Shown here: one piece after another, positions 3,001-51,890 of the stretch
How positions within the stretch are numbered: the first letter of the stretch is position 1
Layout of the letters: each line of letters starts with the position of its first letter
DNA from: Candidatus Freyarchaeum deiterrae
GTDB taxonomy: Archaea > Asgardarchaeota > Jordiarchaeia > Jordiarchaeales > Jordiarchaeaceae
Reading direction: 5' to 3'
Assembly: GCA_037305845.1 (NCBI GenBank)
Contig: CP147778.1
Coordinates: forward strand, 1,632,001 to 1,696,000
Length of the DNA stretch: 64,000 nucleotides
Program-made: the position numbers and the translations under genes
Notes under the pieces: generated by a model
What the model saw: only the letters and a program-made list of their open reading frames with translations
What the model was told of the DNA's origin: nothing
The model's database searches: none

Positions 3001-4620
3001 GTGCAAGCCAAGGATAGAGTCAAGAAAACATTAAAAATTATTCTCGAGGCAGGTTATCAGGTAACTCCAGACGCGTTGAAAGCCTTTTCACTTTATGAAA
3101 ACCCTGAAGATCTTGCAAAGGAGTTAATTTCGAAAATCGAAGAAGACTCGGAAAACATCATTACTATAGACAACAAATACATTAACGCATTAGAAGAAAA
3201 CCTTGAAACGGATAAGGAAATAGAACCGTCGGACCCCTCGAAGATAAAAAATCAAATCAGTGAGATAGCAAAACCAGAAAAAATAACACCAAAAACCCAA
3301 GAAACCATTAACAAAAATACAGAAACCCAAGAAATCAATACTAACAATCAATCTCTGTTAACTCAAGCAAGCCCAAAGAAATATTTAGCGAAAGATATTG
3401 ACGCAAGATTCGAAGTGATATTTGATCCAACCGGAAGAATGAAGGGTAAAGGCACATTTGAAAATTTCATAAACTATTTCAGAGACAGATACATGAGAAT
3501 TTACAATATCTTCCTTAAAAGGGGGGATATGGAAAATATTTCAAAATTTTCGGAAATTCCACCAGGCAAAGATAAGCAAACCAAAATAATAGGAATAATA
3601 ACCTCAATACAAAAAACGAAGTCTGGCAATATTCTAATGGAATTAGAAGACCTTGAGGGCTCAATCAAAGCAATCATCAATGAGAAGAATAGCGATGTAA
3701 TAAAAAAGGCAGAATATGCAATGTTGGATCAGGTATTATGTTTTGAAGGATATTTATCTAACGATATGTTCATCGTAAATGATTTCTTGTGGCCAGATAT
3801 TCCAATTAAACGAGAAAGGAATAAGTCGGATGAACCAATCTGTGCAGCGTTCATTTCGGATACACACTTTGGTAGTAGGGAATTTCTATCCGACTCATTT
3901 AAACGGTTTACCCAATGGTTAAAAGGACAAGTAGGAGACGAGAGAAGTAGAGAATTGGCAGGGCGTGTAAAATACCTAATAATTGCCGGAGACATAGTGG
4001 ATGGTATAGGTATCTATCCCACGCAGGAAGAAGATCTAGTAGTTACTAATATCCATGAGCAGTACGAGCTAGCAGCAAAATATTTTGAAGAAGTACCAGA
4101 TTATGTAAAAATGATCGCGATACCTGGAGGCCATGATGCAACTAGAATAGCACTCCCTCAACCCGCAATACCTAAGGAATACGCGGAACCCTTATACGAA
4201 ATCGGTGTAGAGATGTTAGGAGACCCCGCCCAGATTTTAACCCACAACGTGGAAACACTAATTTTTCATGGTGAAAGCTTAAACGATGTCACAGCAGCTA
4301 TACCTATAGAACAAACAAAACCACACAAAGCAATGACAGAATTAATAAAAGGAAGACATCTGAATCCAATATACGGAAATACACCAATAGCCCCTGAACC
4401 ACAAGATTGGCTTGTAATAGAAAGAGTTCCAGACATAGTACACTGCGGCCATATACATATCAATGATACAGGAGGATATAGAGGAGTAATCCTATTAAAT
4501 TCTGGAACTTTCCAATCACAAACAGCATATCAAAAATCGATGGGGCTAGAACCAACCCCCGCAAAACCATTAATTCTCGACCTGCAGTCGTATAAAATGA
4601 TTCAATTAGATTTCCTCTAA
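3001..4620 (+). CDS. polB: DNA polymerase D small (proofreading) subunit DP1
   Basis: YFRDRY, OB fold, phosphoesterase motifs SDTHFGS, AGDIVDGIGIYP, FHG, GHIH; next to cdc6. Confidence 0.95.
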   Translation: MQAKDRVKKTLKIILEAGYQVTPDALKAFSLYENPEDLAKELISKIEEDSENIITIDNKYINALEENLETDKEIEPSDPSKIKNQISEIAKPEKITPKTQETINKNTETQEINTNNQSLLTQASPKKYLAKDIDARFEVIFDPTGRMKGKGTFENFINYFRDRYMRIYNIFLKRGDMENISKFSEIPPGKDKQTKIIGIITSIQKTKSGNILMELEDLEGSIKAIINEKNSDVIKKAEYAMLDQVLCFEGYLSNDMFIVNDFLWPDIPIKRERNKSDEPICAAFISDTHFGSREFLSDSFKRFTQWLKGQVGDERSRELAGRVKYLIIAGDIVDGIGIYPTQEEDLVVTNIHEQYELAAKYFEEVPDYVKMIAIPGGHDATRIALPQPAIPKEYAEPLYEIGVEMLGDPAQILTHNVETLIFHGESLNDVTAAIPIEQTKPHKAMTELIKGRHLNPIYGNTPIAPEPQDWLVIERVPDIVHCGHIHINDTGGYRGVILLNSGTFQSQTAYQKSMGLEPTPAKPLILDLQSYKMIQLDFL

Positions 4621-4679: not shown

Positions 4680-4711
4680 GATATCAATTTTAGATATCAA
4701 CCACTGATATC
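4680..4711. repeat. GATATC array (3 exact copies, 13-bp period)
   Basis: GATATC at 4680, 4693, 4706 between convergent DP1 and cdc6. Confidence 0.9.
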
Positions 4712-4715
4712 ATCA

Positions 4716-5954
4716 TTAGCCTTGTGGGAGAGGAGGAACGTAATTAACCGTTTTTTTAATGTGATAATCGTTTTCGAGTATCCCTTTTATCTGTTCAGGA
4801 GGCATGTTGATCTTAATTTGTTTAGTCATGCCGTAACGACCCTCACTCTTGAGCTTAGCAATTATTATTCCGAGCATATCTAACTCTGCGATAAGTCCAC
4901 TGACACGCCTTTCTCCCAATATTTCCAGATTAACAATTTTACAAAGATCCGAATATACATCATAAACCAAACCAGTGGTTATTTTTGAGGATTTATTCCT
5001 GTCTAATAAGTAAATACTATAGAGGACAAGCTTAGATTGAATAGGAAGAGTTGAAATCACTTCCGAAACACGATCAGTCTCTAAAATACTTTGAGCCAGC
5101 TTAACACATTCCTGAGTAATTTTAGTCGCTCCCAGTCTTTCACCCTGCTCACCCGCAACACGCAAAAGATCCAAAGCGCGTCTAGCATCACCATGCTCTC
5201 TAGCCGCAAGAGCAGCGCAAAAATTAATCACGCCCGGTTCATCTAACACACCATCAGCGAAACTCATTTTCGCCCTCTCCCTAAGAATATCCTGCAACTC
5301 CAAGGCCCCATAAGGCGGAAAAACCAGCTCCTCTTCGCCCAAACTACTCAAAACCCGGGGATCCAAATTTTCTTTGAACTTTAGATTATTGGTAATGCCA
5401 ATAATACTGACACAAGCCGCCTTCAAAATAGAATGGTTAATCCTTGTTAAGTCATAAAGTACAGAATCTCCATCTTTATCCACTAATTTATCAACTTCAT
5501 CTAAAACAATAATCATAAGTCCCTTTCTAGAGTCCATTGCCGAGATAAAACGGTTGTAAACCTCGTCAGTAGGCAACCCTGTGAAGGGCACCTCAACACC
5601 AAGATTCTCACACAAATGAGCCAAAACACGATAATTAGTGTTAACAGTACTACAGTTCAAGTAAACATAATTGGGCGTTGAAACACCCATCTCTCTACAC
5701 TTTTCAGCCAAGTGTTTTAAAACATATTTAACCACTGCTGTTTTACCGGTTCCAGTTTTTCCATAAAGGAATACGTTAGACGGAGTTCCACTCTTTAGAG
5801 CAGTGGCTAAAATAATTCCCACTCGCCCTATCTCCTTAACACGATGCGGCAAGTTATCTGGAATATAAGTCGGACGAAGGACCTCCCGATCTTTGAATAT
5901 TCCTGGTCCCGAAAGGTATTTTTCGAATATGGAATCAAGGGGCTTCTCGCTCAT
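4716..5954 (-). CDS. cdc6: Orc1/Cdc6 replication initiator (origin-associated)
   Basis: YIPDNLPHR, Walker A GKTGTGKT, Walker B VLDEVD, GDARRALDLLR, C-terminal wHTH. Confidence 0.96.
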   Translation of the reverse strand: MSEKPLDSIFEKYLSGPGIFKDREVLRPTYIPDNLPHRVKEIGRVGIILATALKSGTPSNVFLYGKTGTGKTAVVKYVLKHLAEKCREMGVSTPNYVYLNCSTVNTNYRVLAHLCENLGVEVPFTGLPTDEVYNRFISAMDSRKGLMIIVLDEVDKLVDKDGDSVLYDLTRINHSILKAACVSIIGITNNLKFKENLDPRVLSSLGEEELVFPPYGALELQDILRERAKMSFADGVLDEPGVINFCAALAAREHGDARRALDLLRVAGEQGERLGATKITQECVKLAQSILETDRVSEVISTLPIQSKLVLYSIYLLDRNKSSKITTGLVYDVYSDLCKIVNLEILGERRVSGLIAELDMLGIIIAKLKSEGRYGMTKQIKINMPPEQIKGILENDYHIKKTVNYVPPLPQG

Positions 5955-6213
5955 GCTTCAACCTCTATTATTTGATGTCTACGATTTAAACTTTAATCTT
6001 GGTATTACACCCGTAGGATACTCCAACCTCTATTAGTTGATGGTTTCCTCAAGTAGCTAAGCAGCTGAATAAGAAACCGTTTCAACACCAAGCTCTTGAG
6101 AAAACAGTCCATCCTCCAGGGAGGGAACTAGCAAAAATTGCTTTGGAAATCAAGGTAATAAAGGTTGCGCAGAGGTATAATAATAAATAATTGAATAACA
6201 GACGCGAAATGAT

Positions 6214-6284
6214 GAAATCATTAAAAGATATCAAGCTAGATATCATAAAAAGTAATCCAAAAAAGGATACCAGAACAGGATATC
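6214..6284. repeat. GATATC-like array (6 units, 12-14 bp period)
   Basis: GAAATC 6214, GATATC 6227, GATATC 6239, GTAATC 6252, GATACC 6266, GATATC 6279. Confidence 0.85.
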
Positions 6285-6290
6285 AACAGT

Positions 6291-6782
6291 TCAAGTAAAC
6301 AGATAATCAAGTTGAGAGACGGCCTCAATCCTATCCTTCACTTTTTCTGTTCTAAGACGGTAACGATACTGTTTACGAGTACCAGTTCTCTCAAGCATAG
6401 ATTCCTTACTCTCGTCATAAATTCTAGCAAGGTAAGTAGACATAGTACTCAGAGGAAGACCCTCTTTAAAGAGATTAACATACTGCTCCTGAACATCATT
6501 AGAAGTAAACCACCCATGCTTGAAACACTTCAATAAAACAATCTCCACCTTCTCCTTCAGAGAGAGACTATCCAAATCAGTATAGGTGGCAGACACAGAA
6601 CTATCGCCAGAAGAACTATTACTAGAAACTTCGGACTCAACTTCAAACGAAGAAAATTTTTTTGATAGCGCCTCTACCAATGAGGCTGCTAAATGGGGTG
6701 GTATATCCCCCTCTAGGGTAAGCGTTACTTTGCGATCTGTTTCCGAATCCGAAATCTCAAACTTGTATTTTCTTTTTGGCAA
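6291..6782 (-). CDS. Hypothetical protein with probable C-terminal winged helix, origin-flanking
   Basis: 163-aa ORF, TTG start after GGTGG; WFTSxDVQEQY...LSTMSTYLARI...RQYRY resembles wHTH; Ser-rich linker. Confidence 0.7.
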   Translation of the reverse strand: MPKRKYKFEISDSETDRKVTLTLEGDIPPHLAASLVEALSKKFSSFEVESEVSSNSSSGDSSVSATYTDLDSLSLKEKVEIVLLKCFKHGWFTSNDVQEQYVNLFKEGLPLSTMSTYLARIYDESKESMLERTGTRKQYRYRLRTEKVKDRIEAVSQLDYLFT

Positions 6783-7071
6783 GCAGTTCCACCCGAAATT
6801 GAGGTACGGTAATAATTGTATTCACATGTATATATAGTTTATCTTTTAATAAGAAATTTGTGAACCAACCGATAAAAGAATCATAAAGAAAACAATAAAA
6901 CATAGTATAATATTTTACAAAATAAACACGAAATATTGACCAAAATACAAAAAAGAGGAAAAAATAAACCTTAAACAAAAAATAGAGTGCATTTTCCATA
7001 TTTTTTTATATTCACAGATTCACAAAAACACCATACTTAAAAACAATAAAAAAGAATTTTTATTAACAATC

Positions 7072-7091
7072 TCCACTGGAAACAAAGGGGT
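7072..7091 (+). promoter_or_regulatory. ORB element 1
   Basis: TCCACTGGAAACAAAGGGGT. Confidence 0.88.
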
Positions 7092-7300
7092 AAGTAATAA
7101 AAATGACATTAACACAAAAAGCCGAAATCTTTTCTAAAAATAACCAATTTAAAGCCTTATTTCAACAATCAGATTAACAAATGACGCGTCAACTGTGAAT
7201 GACATTAACACTGGAGATCCCAAGGAAAATTCTACTAATAATCAAAACACCGCCCCAGGAAGGTGAGAAAACAAGTTTCCTGAAGATAATTTCAAGATAT

Positions 7301-7332
7301 GATACCAATTTCAGATATCAATATTTGATATC
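7301..7332. repeat. GATATC-like array (3 units, 13-bp period)
   Basis: GATACC 7301, GATATC 7314, GATATC 7327. Confidence 0.8.
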
Positions 7333-7494
7333 ATGGTTTTTTTAAACAATTAAAAAGCTTGGAACACATGTTCTAACAAAAACATCTGGGGCATATCAAA
7401 TTTTAATATGTCTTATACCTAAAAGAAAAATCAAACTGACTATAAAGAGGGACTTGAAATTAATTACATTTATGTATATGACATTCTACCGGGC

Positions 7495-7746
7495 ATGAAA
7501 AGAGATCCAGTGAGGATGAAGTTTTATAAAGAGTTGTTCGGCTTCAATTATTCTTGGGAAACAAAGAACCAAAGAAAAGTTAAATATCAACCCGGTTTGC
7601 TAGACTATGAGGGATGCGAGACGGCGGGTGACAGCGCAATATTAGTTCCTGAAGAGTATGTAGAAGAGTTCAATTCCTTTTTCAGAAAGTATCGGAATAT
7701 TATCTCATGCCGAGTTTTTATAGTACAAGAGGAAGTAAAACTATAG
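7495..7746 (+). CDS. Small hypothetical protein, possibly Cas2/VapD-like fold; true start may be upstream (non-AUG)
   Basis: Frame open from 7423; YIYVYDIL...RMKFYKELFG...SAILVP; GAGGG at 7447. Confidence 0.55.
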   Translation: MKRDPVRMKFYKELFGFNYSWETKNQRKVKYQPGLLDYEGCETAGDSAILVPEEYVEEFNSFFRKYRNIISCRVFIVQEEVKL

Positions 7747-7814
7747 AAATTAGAACACGTGTTCTAATTAATTAAAATTCGGCCCTCAAAAGGTAAAAAG
7801 TCAATCAAACCCCT

Positions 7815-7836
7815 ACCCCAACATTTCTACTGGAAA
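7815..7836 (-). promoter_or_regulatory. ORB element 2
   Basis: Minus strand TTTCCAGTAGAAATGTTGGGGT. Confidence 0.85.
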
Positions 7837-7991
7837 TACTAACTACCCTTAGCATGGTATTTGTTTGTTAGTTAGTAACTACTCCCCCGTTTAAAATTGT
7901 TTCTTTCTATATTTAAACATACTTATCAAAGTTTTTCGATTAACAACTCAAGATTTATTTCCAATAAAATTTGTAATCAACAGTAAACAGT

Positions 7992-8013
7992 TTTCCAGTA
8001 GAAACCAAGGGGT
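7992..8013 (+). promoter_or_regulatory. ORB element 3
   Basis: TTTCCAGTAGAAACCAAGGGGT, inverted relative to ORB2. Confidence 0.88.
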
Positions 8014-8311
8014 GCGTTTTTAAAACTTTCCAAGTCACCTTCCAGGATTAGAGAACCGAACTAAACTTTTCAAAAAATAGTAAACCCATTGGAATAGCTC
8101 TTAGAGTTAATTTATGGTAACTAAATGAGCAGCATACAAATTAAAGAACTGTGGTCAGTAAAGAATGGTTTCATTTCTTGTATTAGTGAACAATGTGAAT
8201 CTTTCTGAAAAAGAAAGTTACGAGTATCAAAAAAGTAATATCTGGATCCGCGTCGTCATTATTTTTTCGAACGATGTTTAACCGGTAACTAATGCTATAC
8301 CTCATCAGCAC

Positions 8312-8382
8312 GCTATCTATTTTTGATTTCGAGAGTAGACATCATTGTCTGATATCAATTTTTAGCATCATTTTTTGATGTC
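8312..8382. repeat. GATATC-like array (6 units, exact 13-bp period)
   Basis: GCTATC 8312, GATTTC 8325, GACATC 8338, GATATC 8351, AGCATC 8364, GATGTC 8377. Confidence 0.8.
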
Positions 8383-9043
8383 AAGGTATTCTTAGTAGTC
8401 GGATTAGAATTTGTGCTGATAATCAAATCGAGTAGTACAATCTAATTCCTTTGAAATTGGTTGCAAACATGTAGTTCTTGACCGTTCAGGCACTATGAGA
8501 ACCTGAGTTAATTGTCCTGTAATCATAATTCCTGTAATTTAGTTTACTGCAGCTCTCAAAATTATTCTAAATTGTCAAATATTAAAAGTTTAAACCAATG
8601 GAACTAGGTGGATCTGTTTTTATGAATTGGATATATTTGGGGGCTTTTATTATTTCGAGAATATTGAAGATTGTAACTGCTATCCTTTTTACGAAGATCA
8701 AAGCAAGAAAACCTCATCACCTCTCAAAAGGTAGGGAATAAATTTACAGGGTTTAAAATGCAAAAAGGAAAAAAGTATAATGGGACTGGATTACCCTGAA
8801 AGTTGGGAAGATATTAATTTGAGGGTGATATGCCCCGCATTTCTAACTATAATTCAGAAGTGTAGATCCTAACCTTCAATTTTTTGGGGTATTCCAGAAT
8901 AAGCAGACAGCAATATTTGGGGGCATTCCCTCTTTCTATATATTGATTCAAAAACTCGCGTGGGATTGATCCGGAAAAGATAATTTCATTTTCTTACTTT
9001 TATTCGCCCCTATTTAATGTAAATTTGGAAGAGCCGAAATTTT

Positions 9044-9120
9044 GATATCAAAAGATGTAATCCATAAATGATATTTAATGCAGATATCAGATATCTTAAA
9101 TAGATATCAAAAATGATATC
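9044..9120. repeat. GATATC-like array (7 units)
   Basis: GATATC 9044, GTAATC 9057, GATATT 9070, GATATC 9083, 9090, 9103, 9115. Confidence 0.88.
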
Positions 9121-9884
9121 AAGCAGTTAGAGGAATAAGAAATCAGCGGCAGGACCAGGACTTACAAGACGTTGGCCTGCTTTACTTTAATCGAGGTAGA
9201 AAAGCTGAAGAATAAAAACAAAAAGATATCATTGTTATTGCTCTTAATCTGAAAGAATTATCTAGAAAATTTAGAAAAATGTTTACAAAAGTGTATACGG
9301 AGAACCCTCCTCCGTAGGAACCGCGAAAATTTCTTACTATATTAAGGGAGTAATATCTAGATAGTCTATATGGGTTAAAAAACGCATAAAAACCGATATT
9401 TTAACCGAACTCATTGAGATAATAGACAAAAAAGATTTTTAAAAAAGAAAATAATAGAGCTTTTCAACAAAAATAACGAATTTTAATCTTTGAATTTTCG
9501 TAAAATGAATGATATTAAGCGAGGCAATAACCCTTGGTAGTAATTTTTGAAACATAGATTTTGAGAATTAGCCTGGGGCTACTATCAAAATATACCAGCG
9601 CTTGCAAATCTTATCATATCTACGACTGGTTCCTATTTTTTCATTGTTTTTTAAAAAGACCACTGGTAAACCTGTTGCTTGAGTAAAGCTGAAAATTATA
9701 ATTCCAGCAATTGTAACGCTTGGCTTCGGAAATTGCACGCATGGAAAATTCTTTCGGATTAACGGTCAGGGTCTTGATCCCTTTTAGTTTTTAACTTTTT
9801 TATTATTTGAGTTGGTTTTCTACTATTACTGTTCCTCTCGTTTGTAGCTCTTTGATGCATTTTTTTATTACGTCTCGACCCTTT

Positions 9885-9935
9885 GATATCTCTTTCTGAT
9901 ATCTTTTTCTGAAATCAGTATCTGATTTCGATATC
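9885..9935. repeat. GATATC-like array upstream of AAA+ gene
   Basis: GATATC 9885, 9898, GAAATC 9911, GATTTC 9924, GATATC 9930. Confidence 0.85.
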
Positions 9936-10099
9936 TTTATCAATTATGAGTAATAATAAAATATTTGCCAATTGTTATTTATTCCGTAGCCAGTTGGAAA
10001 TCATTTGAGTATATCATTAAATAATGGTTGAAATGTTATCCAAGGGCGTTGTTTCGTCTTTATTGTATGGTTGAAGCATTTAATTTAGAGGTGATACTC

Positions 10100-11161
10100 A
10101 TGGAAGAAAAGTCTGGTGTTGTTGGTAAGCTTTATCCTGGTGTGGCTGAGGCTAGAAATGCTTATTATGAGCGTGTTGGATGGAAGTGGAATCCTTTTGC
10201 TAAGGTTCGCTTGAGCGACCCTGAACTCTTTGTTGCTTCTACCGATGTGATTTTAGAGATTGATGATTATATTAAGGCGAAGGAAAGGCATCTCCTAATT
10301 ACGAGTGAAGAACCTGGTATGGGTAAGACTATGCTTTTGGAGCTGATTTTTAATGATCTTATTCTGTTGTCTAAGCAGGAGAATAAAGAGTATTTGTTTA
10401 ATCCCATAGTGGTGAATCAGAGTAAATTGTTTGTGCGTCAGATGGGAGAGGTGATAGCGAAGAAGTTGGATATAAAATACACGAGTAAAATGAGTTCTGA
10501 GGATATTTACACGTTGATTAAGAAGGATATTATGACGCGTTTTCTTTTGACGAATTGGATGACTCTGATTTTTATTGATGATTTTGGTGATAATGATTCC
10601 GAGGTTTTTATTAAGCTTAAGGAGTTGGGTGATCTAACCCAGAAAGACGCTAATAATTATCTTTTTAACCAAGAATCTGATTTTAAGAAGTATGCTAGTT
10701 CTGCGAATTATCAATTATCTAAGGACAAATTGAATGAGCTGAAAAAAAACGCTTTGGATCCTGAAAGTAGGGATCAAATGATTTGTATGCTGATACTTAC
10801 TGGAACTAAATCTCATGCGTTGGGGCTAAAGACCGGGGTTCCTCATCTTTATGATCGTTGCTGGGAAATTGAACTCGACAGACTGGATAGAAAAAAGGTT
10901 CGGGAGCTTATTGGAAGAAGATTGTATTGGGCAGGTGGAAAACTGGCGAGTTTTAAAGAGGACAACTTTGAAACTTATCCCTTTGATGAGGACGCCATTT
11001 CTGTTTTGACGGAAAAGGCTCACGGCGTAGGGCGGGACCTACGTCTGCTTTGTAATCAGGCAGTGTTTGTTGCAGCTTCAAACTTGAAGGACGGGCGAAG
11101 CGAAAGGATTACCAAAGAGATAATCGAATCTTTGCCACCGGTAGAAAAATTAGTAGATTAA
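10100..11161 (+). CDS. Uncharacterised AAA+ ATPase (ExeA/AAA_22-like)
   Basis: ATG at 10100 after GAGGTGA; YYERVGWKWNPF, Walker A EEPGMGKT, Walker B LIFIDD, HLYDR, GVGRDLRLLC lid. Confidence 0.85.
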   Translation: MEEKSGVVGKLYPGVAEARNAYYERVGWKWNPFAKVRLSDPELFVASTDVILEIDDYIKAKERHLLITSEEPGMGKTMLLELIFNDLILLSKQENKEYLFNPIVVNQSKLFVRQMGEVIAKKLDIKYTSKMSSEDIYTLIKKDIMTRFLLTNWMTLIFIDDFGDNDSEVFIKLKELGDLTQKDANNYLFNQESDFKKYASSANYQLSKDKLNELKKNALDPESRDQMICMLILTGTKSHALGLKTGVPHLYDRCWEIELDRLDRKKVRELIGRRLYWAGGKLASFKEDNFETYPFDEDAISVLTEKAHGVGRDLRLLCNQAVFVAASNLKDGRSERITKEIIESLPPVEKLVD

Positions 11162-11168
11162 CTATAGT

Positions 11169-11280
11169 GATATCTAAAAGAGATATTTAATGAAACAATA
11201 ATGACCGATATCTTAATATTGACATCCTGATAATGATATCTTAATAATGATATCAAAAAATGGTTTCAGGAGTAGATATC
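11169..11280. repeat. GATATC-like array between AAA+ and RHH genes, overlapping RHH start codon
   Basis: GATATC 11169, GATATT 11182, GATATC 11207, GACATC 11221, GATATC 11235, 11249, GGTTTC 11262, GATATC 11275. Confidence 0.88.
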
Positions 11281-11727
11281 TTGCCTAGGCTTACTAAAAT
11301 CGCCGAGAAGGCGCGTGAACAAGAAGCTTTAAAGCAAGCGTCTGAGGATGCTTCTAAATCTCTTAGTACTGAAAACGTTGAAATTGCAAATTTAAAAACT
11401 TCAGATGCCATTGGTCGATTAACTGCGAGCGGTGGATTAGCTGGATTAGAGCACAGCCCCGAAGGCGTTAAGATTGTTGAGAAGATTGTTTATCGTTATG
11501 TAAGAAAGGATCCTGACACTCGGCTCGATACTAATTTTAATGTTAGAATGCCCAGTAACTACTTGGATTTTTTAAAAGGTAGATTTGGAGAAAGAGGCGC
11601 AACTGTTTTTTGTAGGATAGCAATTCTTGAGAAAATGGAGAAGGCTTTTTCAAAACCAGAGCTTGATCCTCTTAAGCTTTTTGAGTTATTGGATGAGCAA
11701 AAACAGAATCTCTCTCGAAAATCGTAA
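11260..11727 (+). CDS. Hypothetical protein with probable C-terminal ribbon-helix-helix DNA-binding domain
   Basis: TNFNVRMPSNYLDFLK...GATVFCRIAILEKME fits RHH strand-helix-helix pattern; extended N-terminus. Confidence 0.65.
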   Translation: MVSGVDILPRLTKIAEKAREQEALKQASEDASKSLSTENVEIANLKTSDAIGRLTASGGLAGLEHSPEGVKIVEKIVYRYVRKDPDTRLDTNFNVRMPSNYLDFLKGRFGERGATVFCRIAILEKMEKAFSKPELDPLKLFELLDEQKQNLSRKS

Positions 11728-11753
11728 ACATTTTTTTATTTTCCCTAATTTTT

Positions 11754-11785
11754 GATATCATTTTTTGGTATCTTTTTGTGCTATC
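11754..11785. repeat. GATATC-like array (3 units, 13-bp period)
   Basis: GATATC 11754, GGTATC 11767, GCTATC 11780. Confidence 0.7.
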
Positions 11786-11962
11786 TTATTTATTTTTGCA
11801 TTTATATAATTTGACAATTTGCTTTTTAGTATATTATATTTGCAGTATACTTTTCTGGAAATAGGAAATGAGAAAGCAATGGACGCTAGTCCTCGCTATA
11901 AAAGATTTGGTAGGTTACGAAAGAGATTGTATTGAAGAAAAAACTGAGGGATGTGATGCGTG

Positions 11963-12511
11963 TTACTCTTTTCGTCCGGTTAGGAAGAAGGGGTTTGCGT
12001 ATTTTTGGATCATGTCTAGTAGGTTTTTTTCTAGTATTTTGAGTGCCGCTTTTTTCTCTTTGGTTTGTTCCTTTTCGTGACTTAGTTCCATCTGCTCCAT
12101 GTAGTTGCTTATAATGTTGGACATGTCGAGATATGGATGTAAGCTTGGGCTATCCAGAATACCGACGTAGCCCAATAGCACGAGAGAGTATATTGCTTCT
12201 ATTAGGTTGGTACAGGCCTGTCCTAGAACTCTTCTAAAGGCGCCACGTGTAACCCCTTTTGTTTTTAATGGTGCGCGAAATTTACGCTTCTGGCTAGGCG
12301 CTCTTAAGAATCCTTTAATTTTATACTTTACAGGTTTGCCGGCGCCTTCATCCAGTAGGAAATTAATCATGAGGGTCTCAAATTGGACTGGCGTAATATT
12401 AGATGAACTGAGTAGTTTACTAACGATAGGATCTGCTAATATATTCTCAACATATTCCCGAACTTTCTCAATATCTCGCTTTTCTGAATCACTGTCATTT
12501 TTAGATAGCAT
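11963..12511 (-). CDS. Hypothetical protein, possible HTH, origin-flanking
   Basis: 182-aa ORF with GGGAG RBS; GVTRGAFRRVLGQA helix motif. Confidence 0.75.
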   Translation of the reverse strand: MLSKNDSDSEKRDIEKVREYVENILADPIVSKLLSSSNITPVQFETLMINFLLDEGAGKPVKYKIKGFLRAPSQKRKFRAPLKTKGVTRGAFRRVLGQACTNLIEAIYSLVLLGYVGILDSPSLHPYLDMSNIISNYMEQMELSHEKEQTKEKKAALKILEKNLLDMIQKYANPFFLTGRKE

Positions 12512-12547
12512 CTTATGCTCCCTTCTTTAAATTTTTATTATAGTAAT

Positions 12548-12579
12548 GATGTCACTAATTGATATCATTTCACGAAATC
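12548..12579. repeat. GATATC-like array (3 units, 13-bp period)
   Basis: GATGTC 12548, GATATC 12561, GAAATC 12574. Confidence 0.7.
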
Positions 12580-12581
12580 TT

Positions 12582-14897
12582 TTAGTTTTGAGCTGCGACT
12601 ATTGCTTGCCCGATGCTAACGCCTGCGTCTCCTGGAGGAGTTTTTTGGTGCTGAATGAATTTTAGGTTATTTTCTTTTACTAGTTTGCTTATTATCTTGT
12701 TTATGGCTTCGTTGTATGCTACACCGCCCGTAAATCCTATAGTTTTTATTCCTGTTTTCTCCGCTGCTATTATTGCCATTTGTGCTAGCCCTTCTGCGAA
12801 TGCTCTTTGGCCTGAAGCTGCTAGGTCTTGGATTTTGTGCTGATTTATTTTTTCTAGAATGTCATTTAATAGTTTTGTAGTGTCGAATATATGCACGCCA
12901 TTTTGTTTGATTATTTCTGGGGTGATTCTTATGGAATCGTTGCCTTTCGCAGCCATTGATTCCAGTCTTATGGATGGTTCTCCTTCGTATGTTTTTTCTA
13001 GACAAATTTTTAGTAGTGCCGAGATTGCGTCTAGAACTCTCCCTGAGCTAGTAGTTGTGATGTAATCTTTTTTTCTTAAAATATTAAGAACTGCTTCCAT
13101 CTCCTGTTTGCCGTATTTAAATCCATCTAGATAGTTCTTAACTAGCATTTCTCTGAGTTCGTCTTCTGGTATTGCATCGCTGAGTATTGCGGTTAACATG
13201 CGTGTGGGGTATTTAGTACTAACATCCCCCCCTGGCATAGGTTGCGATTTTAGGTGTGCTAGTCTTTCTATGGAATTGTATGAGGTAAGCAGAATTTCGC
13301 CACCCCATATTGTTCCATCTAGTCCGTATCCTACTCCGTCGCTGGCTATGCATATTATTGGCTCCTCGATGTTGTTTTCAGCCATTAGTTTTGCTGCGTG
13401 GGCATGATGGTGTTGAACTCTTACCAATTGAATATTGTGAGAATCCGCGAATTCTTCCGCGTATCTTGTGGTGTAAAAATCAGGATGCAAATCACAAGCA
13501 ATCAAGTCGGGTTCTACGAGAGTTAATTTCAACATTTGATTGACTACACTTTTGTGGAATTCTATGGTTTCTAGGTCTCCTGATAAGTTTCCTATATGTT
13601 GGCTTGGAAAGCATCTGTTCCTTTTCATTACAGTTATAGTTGCAGTTAGTTCAGGGCCTACTGCTAAAATGCCTTGTCCTTTATACTCTATGATTGTGTC
13701 TATTGGTTCTGGTACATAACCTCGGGATCTGCGGATAATTTTTGGATTGCCGTCAATTATTCTTATAACGGAGTCGTCACACCTCTGATAGATTTCTCTG
13801 TTATGCAGTAAGAAGAAATCAGCGAGATGCGCTAATTGTGAAATTATCTCATTATTTGACGTCGCCATAGGGTTGTCTGTCAAGTTGCCACTTGTCATCA
13901 CAATAGCTGGATCATTAATTTGTTGAAGAATTAGGTTGTGAAGTCCAGAGTATGGAAGCATTACGCCGACATTGTGAAGCCCGGGGCTTATCTCCTCGGA
14001 TAGGTTGTAGTTTTCAGATTTTTTGAGTAAAACTATTGGGCGTCTAAACGAAGTAATCATATCTTCTTCATATTCATTTACAAAGGCATATTCTCGGACT
14101 TTATCAAGGTTTAGAGACATTATTGCGAAAGGTTTGTATTTTCTCTTTCCTTTTCGTCTGCGTAATTCTAGTATGCATTCGTCGTTGGTTGTTAGGGTAG
14201 CTAGATGGGTGCCACCGATTCCTTTTATCGCTAGAATCCTTCCCTCCTCAATTAAATTTGCAGTTTCTTTTATAGGATTCTCACAATTTACAGTATTACC
14301 GTTTTTGTCATAAAGAGTTAATTTCGGCCCACATATCGGGCAGCAAATACCTTGAGCATGATATCTTCTGTCTAGGGGGTTCTTATATTCCTGATTACAG
14401 TACGTGCATAAAGGGAACTTGCTCATGGTGGTTCTCATTCTATCATATGGTAACTCAATAATTGAAGTGAACCTAGGACCGCAGTCCACGCAACATGTAA
14501 AAGCATAGTTATAATGGCGGTCCGCCGGATTAAGGATGTCATTTAGGCAATTGCCACAGATTGAAATGTCGGGAGGAATATATGAACTTTTTAGAGTGCC
14601 TTCCTTTGAGCTTTTTCTGATATTGAAAGTTTTAAAGCGCCCTTGGTACCGTTTCCAATTTACATCTATTTTTTCATATCTAGCCATGGGCGGTTTTTCT
14701 TTTTCCAAATCTTGAATAAAGTTCTCTATCGCACTTCTCTCCCCTTCAACTACGATGCGAACCCCTGCGTCGCCAAGGTTAAGAACATATCCAGTAAGCC
14801 CCCACTTAACCGCAATTCTATAAACAAAAGGCCTCATCCCAACTCCTTGTACAATACCACTGCAGTTAATTTCACAAGAAGCTTTCAAGAAAATCAA
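12582..14897 (-). CDS. hypF: Carbamoyltransferase HypF ([NiFe]-hydrogenase maturation)
   Basis: GIVQGVGMRPFVY acylphosphatase domain, two CxxC zinc fingers, QHHHAH, DGVGYG, PPGDAGVSIGQ. Confidence 0.96.
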   Translation of the reverse strand: MIFLKASCEINCSGIVQGVGMRPFVYRIAVKWGLTGYVLNLGDAGVRIVVEGERSAIENFIQDLEKEKPPMARYEKIDVNWKRYQGRFKTFNIRKSSKEGTLKSSYIPPDISICGNCLNDILNPADRHYNYAFTCCVDCGPRFTSIIELPYDRMRTTMSKFPLCTYCNQEYKNPLDRRYHAQGICCPICGPKLTLYDKNGNTVNCENPIKETANLIEEGRILAIKGIGGTHLATLTTNDECILELRRRKGKRKYKPFAIMSLNLDKVREYAFVNEYEEDMITSFRRPIVLLKKSENYNLSEEISPGLHNVGVMLPYSGLHNLILQQINDPAIVMTSGNLTDNPMATSNNEIISQLAHLADFFLLHNREIYQRCDDSVIRIIDGNPKIIRRSRGYVPEPIDTIIEYKGQGILAVGPELTATITVMKRNRCFPSQHIGNLSGDLETIEFHKSVVNQMLKLTLVEPDLIACDLHPDFYTTRYAEEFADSHNIQLVRVQHHHAHAAKLMAENNIEEPIICIASDGVGYGLDGTIWGGEILLTSYNSIERLAHLKSQPMPGGDVSTKYPTRMLTAILSDAIPEDELREMLVKNYLDGFKYGKQEMEAVLNILRKKDYITTTSSGRVLDAISALLKICLEKTYEGEPSIRLESMAAKGNDSIRITPEIIKQNGVHIFDTTKLLNDILEKINQHKIQDLAASGQRAFAEGLAQMAIIAAEKTGIKTIGFTGGVAYNEAINKIISKLVKENNLKFIQHQKTPPGDAGVSIGQAIVAAQN

Positions 14898-15160
14898 CCG
14901 TTTAATTTAATTTCAATTTAATCTTAATTTTTATTAATTCTCCAATTTTAGAGCATTACTAGAATTATATAATTTTTCTCGGTTGCTAGACCGCTAAATC
15001 TTTTATTATCTTTTTGAGCTTCCCTTTCTAGAGAATTATAGAGAGGTCTTTATCATGCCTAACGAACGACAAAGGTGAAATTAATATTCTCATGAGTAAT
15101 ATTCTTAAGGGTAATATTCCAAATATGTTTAGAGTTATCTTTTATTAGGGTGGGTTTAAT

Positions 15161-15715
15161 TTGTTTCGACTTCCAACTCCAGAAGATGTTAAAAAACTTA
15201 GGAAAAAGGTGGGTCTAACACAAACTGAATTGGCAGAAAAGGCAAGTGTAAGTCAATCTCTTATAGCTAGAATAGAAAGCGGCTCAGTGGATCCCCGCTT
15301 ATCTACACTACAAAAAATTTTGAATGCCATGCAAATAGCGGATGAGGGATCCTTAACTGCAAAAGACATTATGTTTTCTCCAGTCGTAACAATAGATTCA
15401 GATGCACAGATTCTTGAAGCCACCGAATTAATGAGAAATAAAGACATTTCCCAGCTTCCTGTTGTTAAACAGGGGCGGCCAGTAGGAAGTGTAAATGACC
15501 AGATCATAGTTCAGCATCTGTCCAACGGGCAACAAATTTTCCAGAAGAAGGTAGAGGAAATAATGGAAGAAGCTTTTCCCAGTGTAAGCCCATCAACTAA
15601 GGTAGAAATTATACACCAATTACTCGCAAGAGGCCACCCAGCTGTATTAGTGACAGACAAGGGCGCAATTGTAGGAATTGTTACAAAAATAGATTTAATA
15701 TCAGGCGCAAGATAA
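15161..15715 (+). CDS. XRE-HTH plus CBS-pair transcriptional regulator
   Basis: GLTQTELAEKASVSQSLIARIESG plus two CBS domains. Confidence 0.92.
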   Translation: MFRLPTPEDVKKLRKKVGLTQTELAEKASVSQSLIARIESGSVDPRLSTLQKILNAMQIADEGSLTAKDIMFSPVVTIDSDAQILEATELMRNKDISQLPVVKQGRPVGSVNDQIIVQHLSNGQQIFQKKVEEIMEEAFPSVSPSTKVEIIHQLLARGHPAVLVTDKGAIVGIVTKIDLISGAR

Positions 15716-15847
15716 AACCCAATTCAGATACCAAAATCAAAAATTTATACGATATTTTGTTCCTTAAAAAAAGAAAAAACAACAAATTAATATATGGGTT
15801 AATTCTTAAACCAAGTCTTGAAAAAATTATAAAATCAAAATATTTTT

Positions 15848-16026
15848 GCAGGGTTAGCCAAGATTCCACATAGTTTTGTGTGGAATGGGAACGGTACGGC
15901 GGTAGAAACAGCCTCTATTATGAGATGTTGCAGAAGCTCGAGATCACCTATGGCCAATAAAGTGGGTCAGAACGTGAAACTTACTGGCGGGTTTCCGCCG
16001 CGTGAGTTCAAATCTCACACCCTGCG
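15848..16026 (+). tRNA. tRNA-Ser(CGA) with three introns (15/16, ~30/31, 37/38)
   Basis: Acceptor GCAGGGT/ACCCTGC+G73, long variable arm GGCGG-GTTT-CCGCC, T arm GTGAG-TTCAAAT-CTCAC; introns 15863-15891, 15906-15935, 15943-15978; loop CT CGA GA. Confidence 0.85.
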
Positions 16027-16088
16027 CTTACAAACAATATCAAATATGGGTAGGTATTCTTTTTGGAGACTATTTTACTTCGGTGTTT

Positions 16089-16120
16089 GTAATCTTTTTT
16101 CGATATCAAAAAAAGATATC
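16089..16120. repeat. GATATC-like array (3 units, 13-bp period)
   Basis: GTAATC 16089, GATATC 16102, 16115. Confidence 0.75.
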
Positions 16121-49347: not shown

Positions 49348-50531
49348 ACTCCTCCTAACAGATTTAGTATCTCTTGTTCCAAGATTGAAGTAGGAATATC
49401 TGGTAAACTTATGAGAGTTGTTTTGCCTTTCATCCCGGTTCCAGAAATCTTCGTGGTAATAATACCTTGCTTTTCCAATTCCTTAAGGTGCTCCCAGAAC
49501 TGGGTGTGCCTTCTAGGCTCAATATTGTATTCCTCGCACACTACTCTGTATATCTTCTCCGTTTCACTCGTAGTTACGTATGCTTTTTCTATAGTAAGCG
49601 CCCTTGAAATTGCTAATAATAGTGCTTTATGTTGAAATGGTAGATCTCGTAGTACATCCTTTCGAACAACTGGATAAATCTCTGATTTGACTTCTCTTAT
49701 ATGCTCAGGCGAGATAAGTGTCTTGTTTTGCGCGTCAGCGATTTTTCCAGCACGCCATAAAATCTCTAAGGCGTATCTAGCATCTCCTTGTCTTGCTGCT
49801 ATGTCTGCAATAAATTTTATTTCTTCATCGGTTATAGCGTCAGTCTGAAACGCTTCCTTAACTCGCTCGCTTAGGATGGTTTCAAGTTGGACAGCGGAAT
49901 ATTCTTTTAAACGAATGATATTCTGTTGTAAGCTACTAATGATACTTGAATCCAATCCTCTAAAAAGAGCTTCACTTCTCATTATTCCTATAAGTGAGAG
50001 ACGTTGAACTGCATTTAGTTGCTCTTCAAAAAGTCTTATAAGTGAGTATAAGAGCTCTTCACCTTCTCTTTTTAATAAAAAGTCTAACTCATCAAGGGTG
50101 AGAATTATATGCATATCTTTTTCAACCAAAATTTCCTTCATAATCTGAAGCAGTTCTTCTGTGGAAAATCCTCGTCTGGGTATACGAGGGTGTAGTGTTT
50201 TAACCAATCTGTTAAGAATGATAAAACTAGTTCTTTCTCGTCTACAATTTATGTGAATATAGTGGAGATTAATCCCTCTTTTATTTGCTATAGTCACAAT
50301 TTGGTTCCCAAAACTTTTGGCTAGTGCCGTTTTTCCCGTACCTATGTTTCCAGTAATGATAACTCTTTGACTATTTCCTAGTTTTTCCAAGGTCACCCTG
50401 AAAATACTAGCTAGTTGTTTTAACTCGCTTTCCCTGTGTGGAAGGTGTTCTGGAACATAATCAATGGACAGTTTAGACTCGTCCTTAAATATTGAGGGAC
50501 GAGTTAATTCATCTTCTACTATATTAGGCAT
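49344..50531 (-). CDS. cdc6: Orc1/Cdc6 paralogue
   Basis: YVPEHLPHRE, GNIGTGKT, LDELD, GDARYALE. Confidence 0.94.
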   Translation of the reverse strand: MPNIVEDELTRPSIFKDESKLSIDYVPEHLPHRESELKQLASIFRVTLEKLGNSQRVIITGNIGTGKTALAKSFGNQIVTIANKRGINLHYIHINCRRERTSFIILNRLVKTLHPRIPRRGFSTEELLQIMKEILVEKDMHIILTLDELDFLLKREGEELLYSLIRLFEEQLNAVQRLSLIGIMRSEALFRGLDSSIISSLQQNIIRLKEYSAVQLETILSERVKEAFQTDAITDEEIKFIADIAARQGDARYALEILWRAGKIADAQNKTLISPEHIREVKSEIYPVVRKDVLRDLPFQHKALLLAISRALTIEKAYVTTSETEKIYRVVCEEYNIEPRRHTQFWEHLKELEKQGIITTKISGTGMKGKTTLISLPDIPTSILEQEILNLLGGV

Positions 50532-50660: not shown

Positions 50661-51890
50661 ATGATTAACCAAAAAGAAACTCATTTTTGTGAAAAATCTT
50701 TATTTTTCATATCGCCGTTACAATTAAGTATGATTAAATCATCAGTGTTTAAAGATGAAAGTACATTTTTCCCAGAGTATGTGCCTCCCACTCTCCCCCA
50801 TAGAGAGAAACAACTGGATCAGCTAATGCGTATTTACCGCCCGTTGCTCTCAGATAAACTGGTAAGCGTGAATAGTGCCTTGGTGGGGCAAGCAGGCCTC
50901 GGAAAGACTGCTACTTCGAAATTGTTTGGTCAAAAAATACAGGAAGTGTCAAAACAGTTTAACTCGAAAATACTCTTCGAATATATGTATTGCAGTACTG
51001 TGCGTACTTTGCCCGCTGTTTTAAGACAGATAATTATGAAAAATTGGAAGAAAGTACCTATTATGGGCGTTACTGGGAACGAATTAATCATTGAATTAAA
51101 CGATAGACTCAAGAGAGAAAATACACGGCTCATAATCGCGTTAGATGAAGCTAAACTTCTGGGCGGGGAAGCAATACACGGTTTAATTCGTAGTGCAGAG
51201 TACTTTGGATACGGAAACGCGTGGGTGAGCACCATGATTATAAGTAGACCCGAGGATTGGGCAGCCTACCTATATCCTCATTTAATAGAGGATGTTCACT
51301 CTGTAACAGAATTTTTGCGATACACAGAATCGGAATTGCAGGAGATACTTATGTATCGGGCGTCTCTGGGTTTCTATGAAGGCGTGCTTTCTCCAGAAAA
51401 TTGTAATATGGTTGCAAAGATAGCGAGTGAAACAGGAAATGCACGGCATGGAATAGAAATACTACGTCATGCATGCTATTTAGCCGAAAAAAACGAGGAA
51501 AAAAGAATAACCCCCGAAATGATAAGAATTGCAAAAAACGAGGTTTACCCAGAAACAGCCCCCGAAATACTTCGTGGTTTACATAGACATGAACTAATTG
51601 CTGCACTATCCACTGCCACCACCTTAAAACAAGAGGTTGCAGTACCAATGCATAAGGCTTACGAACAGTACTGTATTGTTTGTGAAGAATATCAAGTTAG
51701 TCCGCGATCCACAAGAAATTTCAGAAACTACATTAGAGTTCTAGCTGAAATAGGATTAATTAACGCAGTGGTGAAAAATCTTAAACGCGGTAGACGGACA
51801 GTTATAACCCTAACAGATATTCCTGCATCTATTCTAGAAGAAAGAGCCAGAAAACTATTAGAACAAAAAAGTAAAAACGACTTTGATTAA
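50661..51890 (+). CDS. cdc6: Orc1/Cdc6 paralogue (divergent)
   Basis: YVPPTLPHRE, GQAGLGKT, LDEA, GNARHGIE; start probably ATG 50730. Confidence 0.9.
   Translation: MINQKETHFCEKSLFFISPLQLSMIKSSVFKDESTFFPEYVPPTLPHREKQLDQLMRIYRPLLSDKLVSVNSALVGQAGLGKTATSKLFGQKIQEVSKQFNSKILFEYMYCSTVRTLPAVLRQIIMKNWKKVPIMGVTGNELIIELNDRLKRENTRLIIALDEAKLLGGEAIHGLIRSAEYFGYGNAWVSTMIISRPEDWAAYLYPHLIEDVHSVTEFLRYTESELQEILMYRASLGFYEGVLSPENCNMVAKIASETGNARHGIEILRHACYLAEKNEEKRITPEMIRIAKNEVYPETAPEILRGLHRHELIAALSTATTLKQEVAVPMHKAYEQYCIVCEEYQVSPRSTRNFRNYIRVLAEIGLINAVVKNLKRGRRTVITLTDIPASILEERARKLLEQKSKNDFD

Follow-up and report, generated by a model that had tools for sequence, protein, structure and literature searches.

Phased GATATC boxes form a single conserved field around an AAA+ ATPase operon beside the replication origin of Candidatus Freyarchaeum deiterrae

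The window analysed here, a 64,000-nt stretch of the complete 3,576,204-bp genome of Candidatus Freyarchaeum deiterrae (contig CP147778.1), contains a field of short arrays built from the palindromic hexamer GATATC (positions 4680-16120). The field surrounds a canonical archaeal oriC, composed of the gene for the small subunit of DNA polymerase D (DP1; 3001-4620, forward strand; DNA_pol_E_B, 2.3e-14), the initiator gene orc1/cdc6 (4716-5954, reverse strand; Cdc6_C, 1.9e-28, and Cdc6_lid, 9.3e-23) and two origin recognition boxes (ORBs). ORB1 (TCCACTGGAAAC-AAA-GGGGT) was located at 7072-7091 and ORB2 (TCCAGTAGAAAC-CAA-GGGGT) at 7994-8013, both on the forward strand. These two were the only matches to the ORB pattern in the window, against 0.03 expected, and ORB-like boxes were also found near Orc1 in relatives. 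The origin also includes a gene-poor stretch of 4 kb. Its general architecture is that described for archaeal oriC (PMC4010727). The field also contains a forward-strand operon, the first gene of which (10028-11161) encodes an AAA+ P-loop ATPase and is followed by the gene of a tailed protein of 155 amino acids (11260-11727), here considered the candidate reader of the boxes. The locus was compared with the genus family of Ca. Freyarchaeum (f1), with a sister family of the same order (f2) and with 20 other Asgard genomes.

The first-pass annotation of this DNA had named ten array starts. All ten were recovered, and the array that it placed at 7301 begins at 7288 when the units are chained. Array 1 (4680-4711) consists of three exact copies of GATATC in 13-bp phase within the convergent gap between the DP1 and Orc1/Cdc6 genes, and its three in-phase units are kept in the aligned sequences of three relatives (G002, G003 and G004). 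Array 2 (6214-6284), downstream of the gene p163, holds six in-phase units, three of them exact, at a distance of 260-330 bp ahead of the Orc1/Cdc6 start; its orthologues were found at loci L023, L024 and L031. Array 3 (7288-7332; orthologues at L023, L024 and L029) comprises four units between ORB1 and the small gene p83. The six units of array 4 (8312-8382), namely GCTATC, GATTTC, GACATC, GATATC, AGCATC and GATGTC, are mostly degenerate, and all follow each other at 13 bp. Array 5 (9044-9120) is made of two chains, of four and three units, joined via a 7-bp slip that reads GATATC-A-GATATC. At this junction (9083-9095) the boxes lie 7 bp apart and create a 13-bp palindrome of palindromes, the sole case in the field. 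Array 6 (9885-9935) lies some 100 bp ahead of the AAA+ gene and contains four or five units, with GATATCT flanks in an orientation opposite to that of arrays 1-5; an array upstream of the AAA+ gene was present in both f1 and f2. Array 7 (11169-11280; two plus six units at lags of 13-14) fills the interval from the stop codon of the AAA+ gene to the probable TTG start of the 155-aa gene at 11281, and its hexamers are invariant in the footprint alignment of five species (A4). Array 8 (11754-11785), of three units, follows directly after the stop codon of the 155-aa gene in the convergent gap with p182, and array 9 (12548-12579), likewise of three units, lies between the start of p182 and the stop of hypF; both have orthologues at L023, L024, L029 and L030. 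Array 10 (16089-16120) has three units, two of them exact, in the convergent gap ahead of an adenosine-kinase-like gene, and its GATATC-N7-GATATC pair recurs at G003:C176:2864, G004:C160:173 and G001:C1:10652. The convergent-gene settings previously assigned to the arrays at 4680, 11754 and 16089 were correct.

The window contains 45 exact copies of GATATC against 14.8 expected from shuffled sequences, and no shuffle reached 45. There were none before position 4680, 28 within 4680-16120 and 17 after it, close to the earlier counts of about 27 inside the field and about 15 beyond it. The 28 copies in the 11.6 kb of the field compare with 2.9 expected (Poisson P = 1.5e-18). Across the whole genome 888 copies were observed and 941 were expected under a Markov model; since there is no genome-wide enrichment, the signal is one of local clustering, and one 10-kb bin holds 21 copies against a genome mean of 2.5 per bin. 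The arrays had been described as essentially all intergenic, and this was true of 26 of the 28 exact copies in the field (about 93%, against 0.84 expected from the genome's non-coding rate). The two departures were the copy at 14360, inside hypF, and the copy at 11275, which falls within the longest open reading frame (ORF) of the 155-aa gene, yet is probably upstream of its true start.

The phasing of the boxes was equally local. With up to one mismatch allowed, 21 pairs of GATATC at a lag of 13 were found in the field, where lags of 26 and 39 were likewise raised, and 83 in the remaining 3.56 Mb, which is the level of the neighbouring lags there; 200 local dinucleotide-preserving shuffles gave a mean of 0.44 pairs and a maximum of five. 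A dynamic-programming scan of the whole genome placed 11 of its 12 best chains within 4680-16120, so that an equal density of arrays throughout the chromosome was not seen. Neither of the two outcomes that the first-pass annotation had named as refuting it, equal density or a lack of lag-13 enrichment over shuffles, was thus obtained. When the chain threshold was lowered, 12 chains with 45 in-phase units were obtained, 25 of them exact and 20 degenerate (e.g., GACATC, GAAATC, GATTTC, GCTATC), at lags of 13 (27 times), 14 (four times) and 12 (twice), as the earlier spacing of mostly 13 bp (12-14) implied. The chains hold two to six units each; of the three to eight per array that had been claimed, seven or eight were reached only once neighbouring chains were merged. 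The consensus of the unit is G-A-T-A-T-C, each base being held in 37-44 of the 45 units, with a weak T on the 5' side, a weak A on the 3' side and A/T-rich spacers. Tandem Repeats Finder, as an independent method, detected period-13/14 arrays at 7301, 9089, 9884, 11207 and 11749. Chance, low complexity and restriction-site avoidance were ruled out by the genome-wide counts, the lag analysis, the chain scan and the shuffles. The field is the only GATATC field at 13-bp spacing in the genome, and it is conserved across the order together with the genes of the 155-aa protein and the ATPase.

The gene order AbrB-PhoU, DP1, Orc1, p163, p83, AAA+, 155-aa gene, p182, HypF and HTH-CBS is kept in f1 and f2. 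Within the genus, the arrays occupy the same gene gaps, including the convergent gap between DP1 and Orc1, and in alignments of four or five species the hexamers are invariant and the spacers drift. The sister family f2, with a GC content of 46%, retains both GATATC and its 13-bp phase, and in f2 as in f1 arrays are found ahead of, between and behind the AAA+ and 155-aa genes. Conservation in sister genomes, proposed in the first-pass annotation as a check, was thus found for the boxes, their phase and their positions in the gaps across two families. In four f2 genomes, a five-unit in-phase array coincides with the part of the AAA+ coding sequence that specifies the Walker B region (KYDIMLRYLL..LIFIDDF; L025:8880-8975, L027:7590-7690, L028:8295-8395 and L032:9370-9470). 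The Freyarchaeum AAA+ gene encodes nearly the same peptide in this region without any boxes. The 13-bp period of the coding array cannot arise from a peptide repeat and therefore reflects selection on the DNA. Of the exact GATATC-N6-8-GATATC pairs in relatives, 22 of 29 lay on contigs carrying Orc1 or the operon, and in the 20 Asgard genomes of other families no such pair was found near Orc1. These data support the boxes as a specific, selected feature of the origin region. The arrays had been called origin-centred, and the field does lie beside the origin; however, it is better described as centred on the operon next to the origin, because the f2 arrays all lie within about 2 kb around the operon.

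The longest ORF of the 155-aa gene starts with ATG at 11260. Most homologues begin with MPRL, which points to the TTG at 11281 as the likely start and to a protein of 148 residues; the whole of array 7, including the box at 11275 (otherwise codons 6-7), would therefore lie upstream in the leader. A variable linker separates the two conserved parts of the protein, an N-terminal helix with an invariant arginine (R10) and a C-terminal domain. The core of the latter, TNFNVRMP-SNYLDFLK-GERG-ATVFCRIAILEKM, has the look of Arc, with its strand, helix A, turn and helix B, and FNVRMP resembles the strand motif of that protein. The strand residues N92, N94 and R96, which are the presumed contacts, are invariant in f1 and f2, and the two families share one box. 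The Pfam Arc model gave sub-threshold matches in eight of 17 family members, and in a six-frame search of the Freyarchaeum genome its best match was the 155-aa gene. The language-model neighbours of the protein were CB_ParB_C, RHH_1, DUF5371 and DUF3950, at 0.85-0.88. From these weak, sub-threshold, yet mutually consistent indications, the C-terminus looks like an Arc-type ribbon-helix-helix (RHH) domain. The family was present in nine of the ten f1 and f2 genomes and in none of the 20 other Asgard genomes, and a HMMER profile search of 1.84 billion representatives returned two clusters at 50% identity, the other hits being two repetitive false matches. Among the neighbouring genes, only this family shares its distribution with the boxes, and the densest array precedes its gene in every genome that has it. 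The 155-aa protein is therefore, in our judgement, probably the protein that binds the GATATC boxes.

The AAA+ gene always adjoins the RHH-like gene in the same orientation. Its product carries the motifs PGMGKT and IFIDD and is AAA_22/ExeA/Orc-like, although only generic AAA_22, NB-ARC and ORC-CDC6-like matches were obtained and no informative relative was found in the PDB. The P-loop is PGMGKT and not the KGGxGK of the ParA type. ParB_N had no match anywhere in the complete Freyarchaeum genome; no ParA-type gene is found within 45 kb of the locus, the first of the CbiA/ParA type lying beyond that distance. Three further genes accompany the origin: p163 (6291-6782, reverse strand), which adjoins Orc1 in Asgard genomes; p83 (7495-7746, forward strand), which is small and conserved and lies between ORB1 and ORB2; and p182 (11963-12511, reverse strand), which in f2 is the third gene of the AAA+/RHH operon. 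None of the three belongs to a Pfam family. Together with the AAA+ family they range to many other Asgard families, where they are again found near Orc1, and by their distribution p163, p83 and p182 are taken as a conserved uncharacterised set of origin-neighbourhood genes. As a separate observation, p83 is flanked by GAACAC(A/G)TGTTC palindromes.

Two other Asgard families (f3 and f7) have distant homologues of the AAA+ protein. After each of these comes a small ORF whose tail is basic and whose core looks like strand-helix-helix. These small partners had no Pfam RHH match, so their resemblance to RHH proteins is a reading of the sequence only, and hhalign detected no homology between the 155-aa family and the small partner of G011 (probability 0.1). 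The exact-hexamer phase scan and Tandem Repeats Finder gave no array in G011 or G022. In f7, a different pair of boxes, GTAWTAC-N2-GTAWTAC at 9 bp, is concentrated around the AAA+/small-ORF module, with 17 of 18 and six of six genome-wide matches on the contig of the module (fields at G015:C28:6300-27900 and G025:C40:124800-132000); a reversed-pattern control gave 10 matches in G015. Because the f7 module sits in a GTAWTAC field, a different small protein appears to go with a different box. In another Asgard class, the closed 2.8-Mb genome G021 holds a canonical parA-parB operon in the slot between DP1, Orc1 and ORB on one side and p182 on the other (L067:6885-8478, i.e., G021:C1:642885-644478), with ParA matching AAA_31 at 1.4e-53 and ParB containing ParB_N and HTH_ParB. 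Judged by gene order, this slot is the position that the AAA+/RHH operon takes in Freyarchaeum. In yet another Asgard family (G020:C23, L068:4722-6430), the slot from p182 to p163/Orc1 is occupied by a 434-aa ATPase_2/AAA_22 protein followed by ORFs of 130 and 189 amino acids that belong to no family.

Starting from the observed arrays, their uniqueness and conservation and their linkage to the operon, we infer the binder, the geometry of its binding, its coupling to the ATPase and its cellular role. Dimers of the 155-aa tailed protein, encoded amid the field, would cooperatively occupy the GATATC tracks, one dimer per 6-bp palindrome, probably via an Arc-type two-stranded ribbon. Neighbouring dimers would be in contact at the 13-bp register, with a twist of about 86 degrees per step, so that four dimers would span about five helix turns and pass roughly once around the DNA. 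Proteins of the RHH type do not spread, so the many short arrays, placed in nearly every intergenic gap, would together assemble a single large nucleoprotein domain at oriC. Through the arrays that surround and separate its two genes, the operon would also be autoregulated, and the conserved N-terminal peptide with its invariant Arg10 would engage the adjacent AAA+ ATPase. The two proteins may then act as a centromere-like partition or origin-positioning complex, a role favoured by the slot equivalence with parAB and by the operon-centred layout in f2. The earlier proposal of cooperative tracks of a dimeric protein that mark the origin region agrees with the uniqueness of the field in the genome, the invariant hexamers and the conserved phase, once it is recast around the operon. 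We regard the complete chain, from the box tracks through the 155-aa binder and AAA+ coupling to a centromere-like role, as a tentative explanation that falls somewhat short of even chances; that the complex serves segregation or positioning is, taken alone, put forward with the same caution or slightly more. A wider reading is more speculative and somewhat less likely: an undescribed origin-linked partition machine of Asgard archaea, built from an Orc/ExeA-like AAA+ protein and a fast-evolving tailed RHH adaptor acting on lineage-specific box fields (GATATC at 13 bp in Jordarchaeales/Freyarchaeia and GTAWTAC at 9 bp in another family), and taking the slot that ParAB holds in Atabeyarchaeia-like genomes.

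Several results weigh against this explanation. The 155-aa protein had no Pfam match over threshold, and neither the family profile nor the 52-aa core, when searched against the PDB, gave more than chance matches, none of them to an RHH protein. The AlphaFold2 models were poor, with a predicted local distance difference test (pLDDT) score of 55 for the 17-sequence alignment and 63 for the C-terminal domain, and both showed one long helix at residues 99-129 and no strand; a Foldseek search against the PDB gave nothing at E up to 0.001. As f1 and f2 are sister families, the phyletic match between the boxes and the 155-aa family counts as a single evolutionary event. The slot equivalence with parAB comes from a single genome, and the occurrence of ParB, which is rare among the 31 genomes, does not cleanly complement that of the module, G025 having both. 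The ATPase is not of the ParA, ParM or TubZ type; we know of no precedent that ties the Orc/ExeA-like class of AAA+ ATPases to segregation, and the Orc/ExeA-like nature of the ATPase fits origin handling equally well.

That last property leads to a device for origin control, in which the RHH-like protein would coat the flanks of the origin and recruit or restrain the AAA+ ATPase, so as to license, time or sequester initiation or to load or exclude MCM. In its favour, arrays are found to either side of the ORBs and of the Orc1/Cdc6 gene, the ATPase of the operon is AAA_22/Orc-like rather than ParA, and its gene lies within a few kb of Orc1 in distant lineages as well. However, the f2 arrays hug the AAA+/RHH operon and neither ORB nor Orc1, another class has a genuine parAB operon in the corresponding slot, and the arrays reach 8 kb beyond the ORBs. 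We consider this account unlikely, though deserving of serious attention.

A plain operator network, in which the small protein would repress its own operon and the neighbouring origin genes with no architectural role, was found improbable. It would explain why arrays precede Orc1, p182 and both genes of the operon, and tandem sites are frequent among RHH repressors; its model would be aCcr1-3, RHH regulators of the cell cycle in Sulfolobales (PMC13199686). On the other hand, three arrays lie between convergent genes at positions conserved across species, one array in the sister family is within coding sequence, the chain scan gave no sites elsewhere in the genome, and 45 units are far beyond the needs of repression.

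It is more doubtful still that the boxes are read by another protein, such as p163, p182, p83, a paralogue of Orc1/Cdc6 or the nearby AbrB-PhoU regulator, the 155-aa protein doing something else. All of these candidates are conserved neighbours of the origin, and the RHH fold of the 155-aa protein is putative, its Arc matches being sub-threshold and both AlphaFold models poor. Against this, p163, p83 and p182 occur in many Asgard genomes that lack GATATC pairs near Orc1, and a 6-bp palindrome, as known from RHH and HTH operators, suits a two-fold ribbon reader better than helix-turn-helix dimers.

Methylation marking, in which an orphan N6-adenine methyltransferase would modify GATATC and the arrays would be read while hemimethylated after replication, as a Dam/SeqA-like alternative had suggested, may draw on the several N6_N4 methyltransferases of the genome and on GATATC being a known methyltransferase and restriction target (EcoRV), but is highly improbable because 20 of the 45 in-phase units are degenerate and not methylatable, yet phased, no Dam/EcoRV-type gene (PF02086) exceeded the cut-off, and the counts of 888 against 941 expected reveal no genome-wide bias.

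The favoured explanation, a dimeric reader of the boxes coupled to an ATPase, has its nearest relatives among the partition systems. In the type Ib plasmid systems omega/delta of pSM19035 and ParG/ParF-parH of TP228, phased short units around the operon serve as both operator and centromere. Omega and ParG are small dimers with a flexible N-terminal tail that contacts the ATPase; they do not spread, hence the many units. The centromere units of plasmid RHH proteins are 7-bp heptads or 4-bp boxes. The Freyarchaeum field shares with these systems the phased short units in several arrays around an operon of a candidate binder and an NTPase. It differs in being chromosomal, origin-linked and in an Asgard archaeon, in its unit of a 6-bp palindrome at 13 bp, and in its extent, as about 45 units, grouped into 10-12 arrays, occupy almost all intergenic gaps across 11.4 kb. 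The partner differs from those of type Ib and type II partition as well, being an AAA+ protein (AAA_22/ExeA/Orc-like) and neither a ParA Walker ATPase nor an actin-like ParM.

Among archaea, the chromosomal SegAB system of Sulfolobales offers the closest comparison. SegB is an RHH protein with a disordered N-terminus that stimulates the ATPase, and its dimers pack as a superhelical array (PMC8682754, PMC12284271). Its 13-bp site, TCTAGA-S-TCTAGA, is built of 6-bp palindromes and is concentrated upstream of the operon (PMC8682754, PMC12284271); the GATATC-A-GATATC junction in array 5 has the same architecture (PMC12284271). The layout of tail, linker and RHH domain in SegB, ParG and omega resembles that of the 155-aa protein (PMC8682754). 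The two archaeal systems thus have in common a chromosomal setting, 6-bp palindromes and a concentration of sites at the operon. In contrast, the 39-49 SegB sites are scattered over the chromosome, about 84% of them intragenic (PMC12284271), whereas all Freyarchaeum arrays lie in one 11-kb field and about 93% non-coding; the unit and the phase also differ. SegA is a ParA protein and the Freyarchaeum partner an AAA+ ATPase, and no sequence relation to SegB was detected, the PDB search with the 155-aa family profile (E up to 10) matching none of its chains.

Bacterial ParABS resembles the locus in that centromere sites cluster at oriC beside the partition operon. However, ParB spreads outward from parS, a lone 16-bp palindrome, and Freyarchaeum has phased tandem arrays, no ParB_N in the genome and no nearby ParA. 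Archaeal ORB and mini-ORB repeats, bound by Orc1/Cdc6, are found at origins beside the initiator gene, and some origins carry many short repeats (PMC4010727, PMC1904270). Unlike ORBs, the GATATC units are palindromic, tandem-phased and without the TCCA..GGAAA dyad, and the true ORBs are separate from them (7072 and 7994). Moreover, Orc1/Cdc6 was present in all Asgard genomes searched and the GATATC boxes in one order only. Plasmid iterons are direct repeats of 17-22 bp by a rep gene, as opposed to the period of 13 and the palindromic 6-bp core observed here; no Rep gene is present at the locus, which is a conserved chromosomal neighbourhood across Asgard classes.

The kind of element is known, namely phased boxes for a small dimeric protein of the centromere-binding type; new are its place at a chromosomal origin, its scale, its occurrence in an Asgard archaeon and its pairing with an AAA+ protein. 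The searchable literature yielded no link of GATATC to archaeal origins and no description of Asgard origins at sequence level or of an AAA+/RHH module. The field has the appearance of a centromere-like or origin-organising device, so far undescribed, in an archaeon closely related to eukaryotes. The locus supplies a sequence-defined oriC for a complete Asgard genome, as well as a precise, testable DNA-protein pair in the form of the 13-bp-phased GATATC boxes and the 148-155-aa protein. It further offers an AAA+, Orc/ExeA-like ATPase, from a class not known in such a role, as a candidate for partition or origin organisation, with lineage-specific pairs of box and adaptor. An initiator-like ATPase tied to centromere-like origin DNA would, if true, bear on the linkage of replication and segregation before eukaryotes.

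Features at the scale of the chromosome also bear on the position of the origin. All Orc1/Cdc6 genes were found at 1.637-1.684 Mb, apart from one weak match at 1.925 Mb. The cumulative GC skew reaches its maximum at 1.678 Mb (genome position 1,677,765; about 45765 in the window), beside the Orc1/Cdc6 genes, and its minimum at the assembly start, and gene orientation diverges from the zone of the ORBs and the Orc1/Cdc6 genes. This suggests that the origin of Ca. Freyarchaeum lies at the maximum of the cumulative skew and not at the minimum, apparently where the bacterial convention would place the terminus. In the paper describing the genome, bidirectional replication was inferred from GC skew only (PMC11291895). 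Two more Orc1/Cdc6 paralogues, at 49392-50531 (reverse strand) and 50739-51860 (forward strand), form a divergent pair about 4 kb from the skew maximum; this pair carries neither GATATC arrays nor ORB matches, and the same pair occurs in relatives of the genus.

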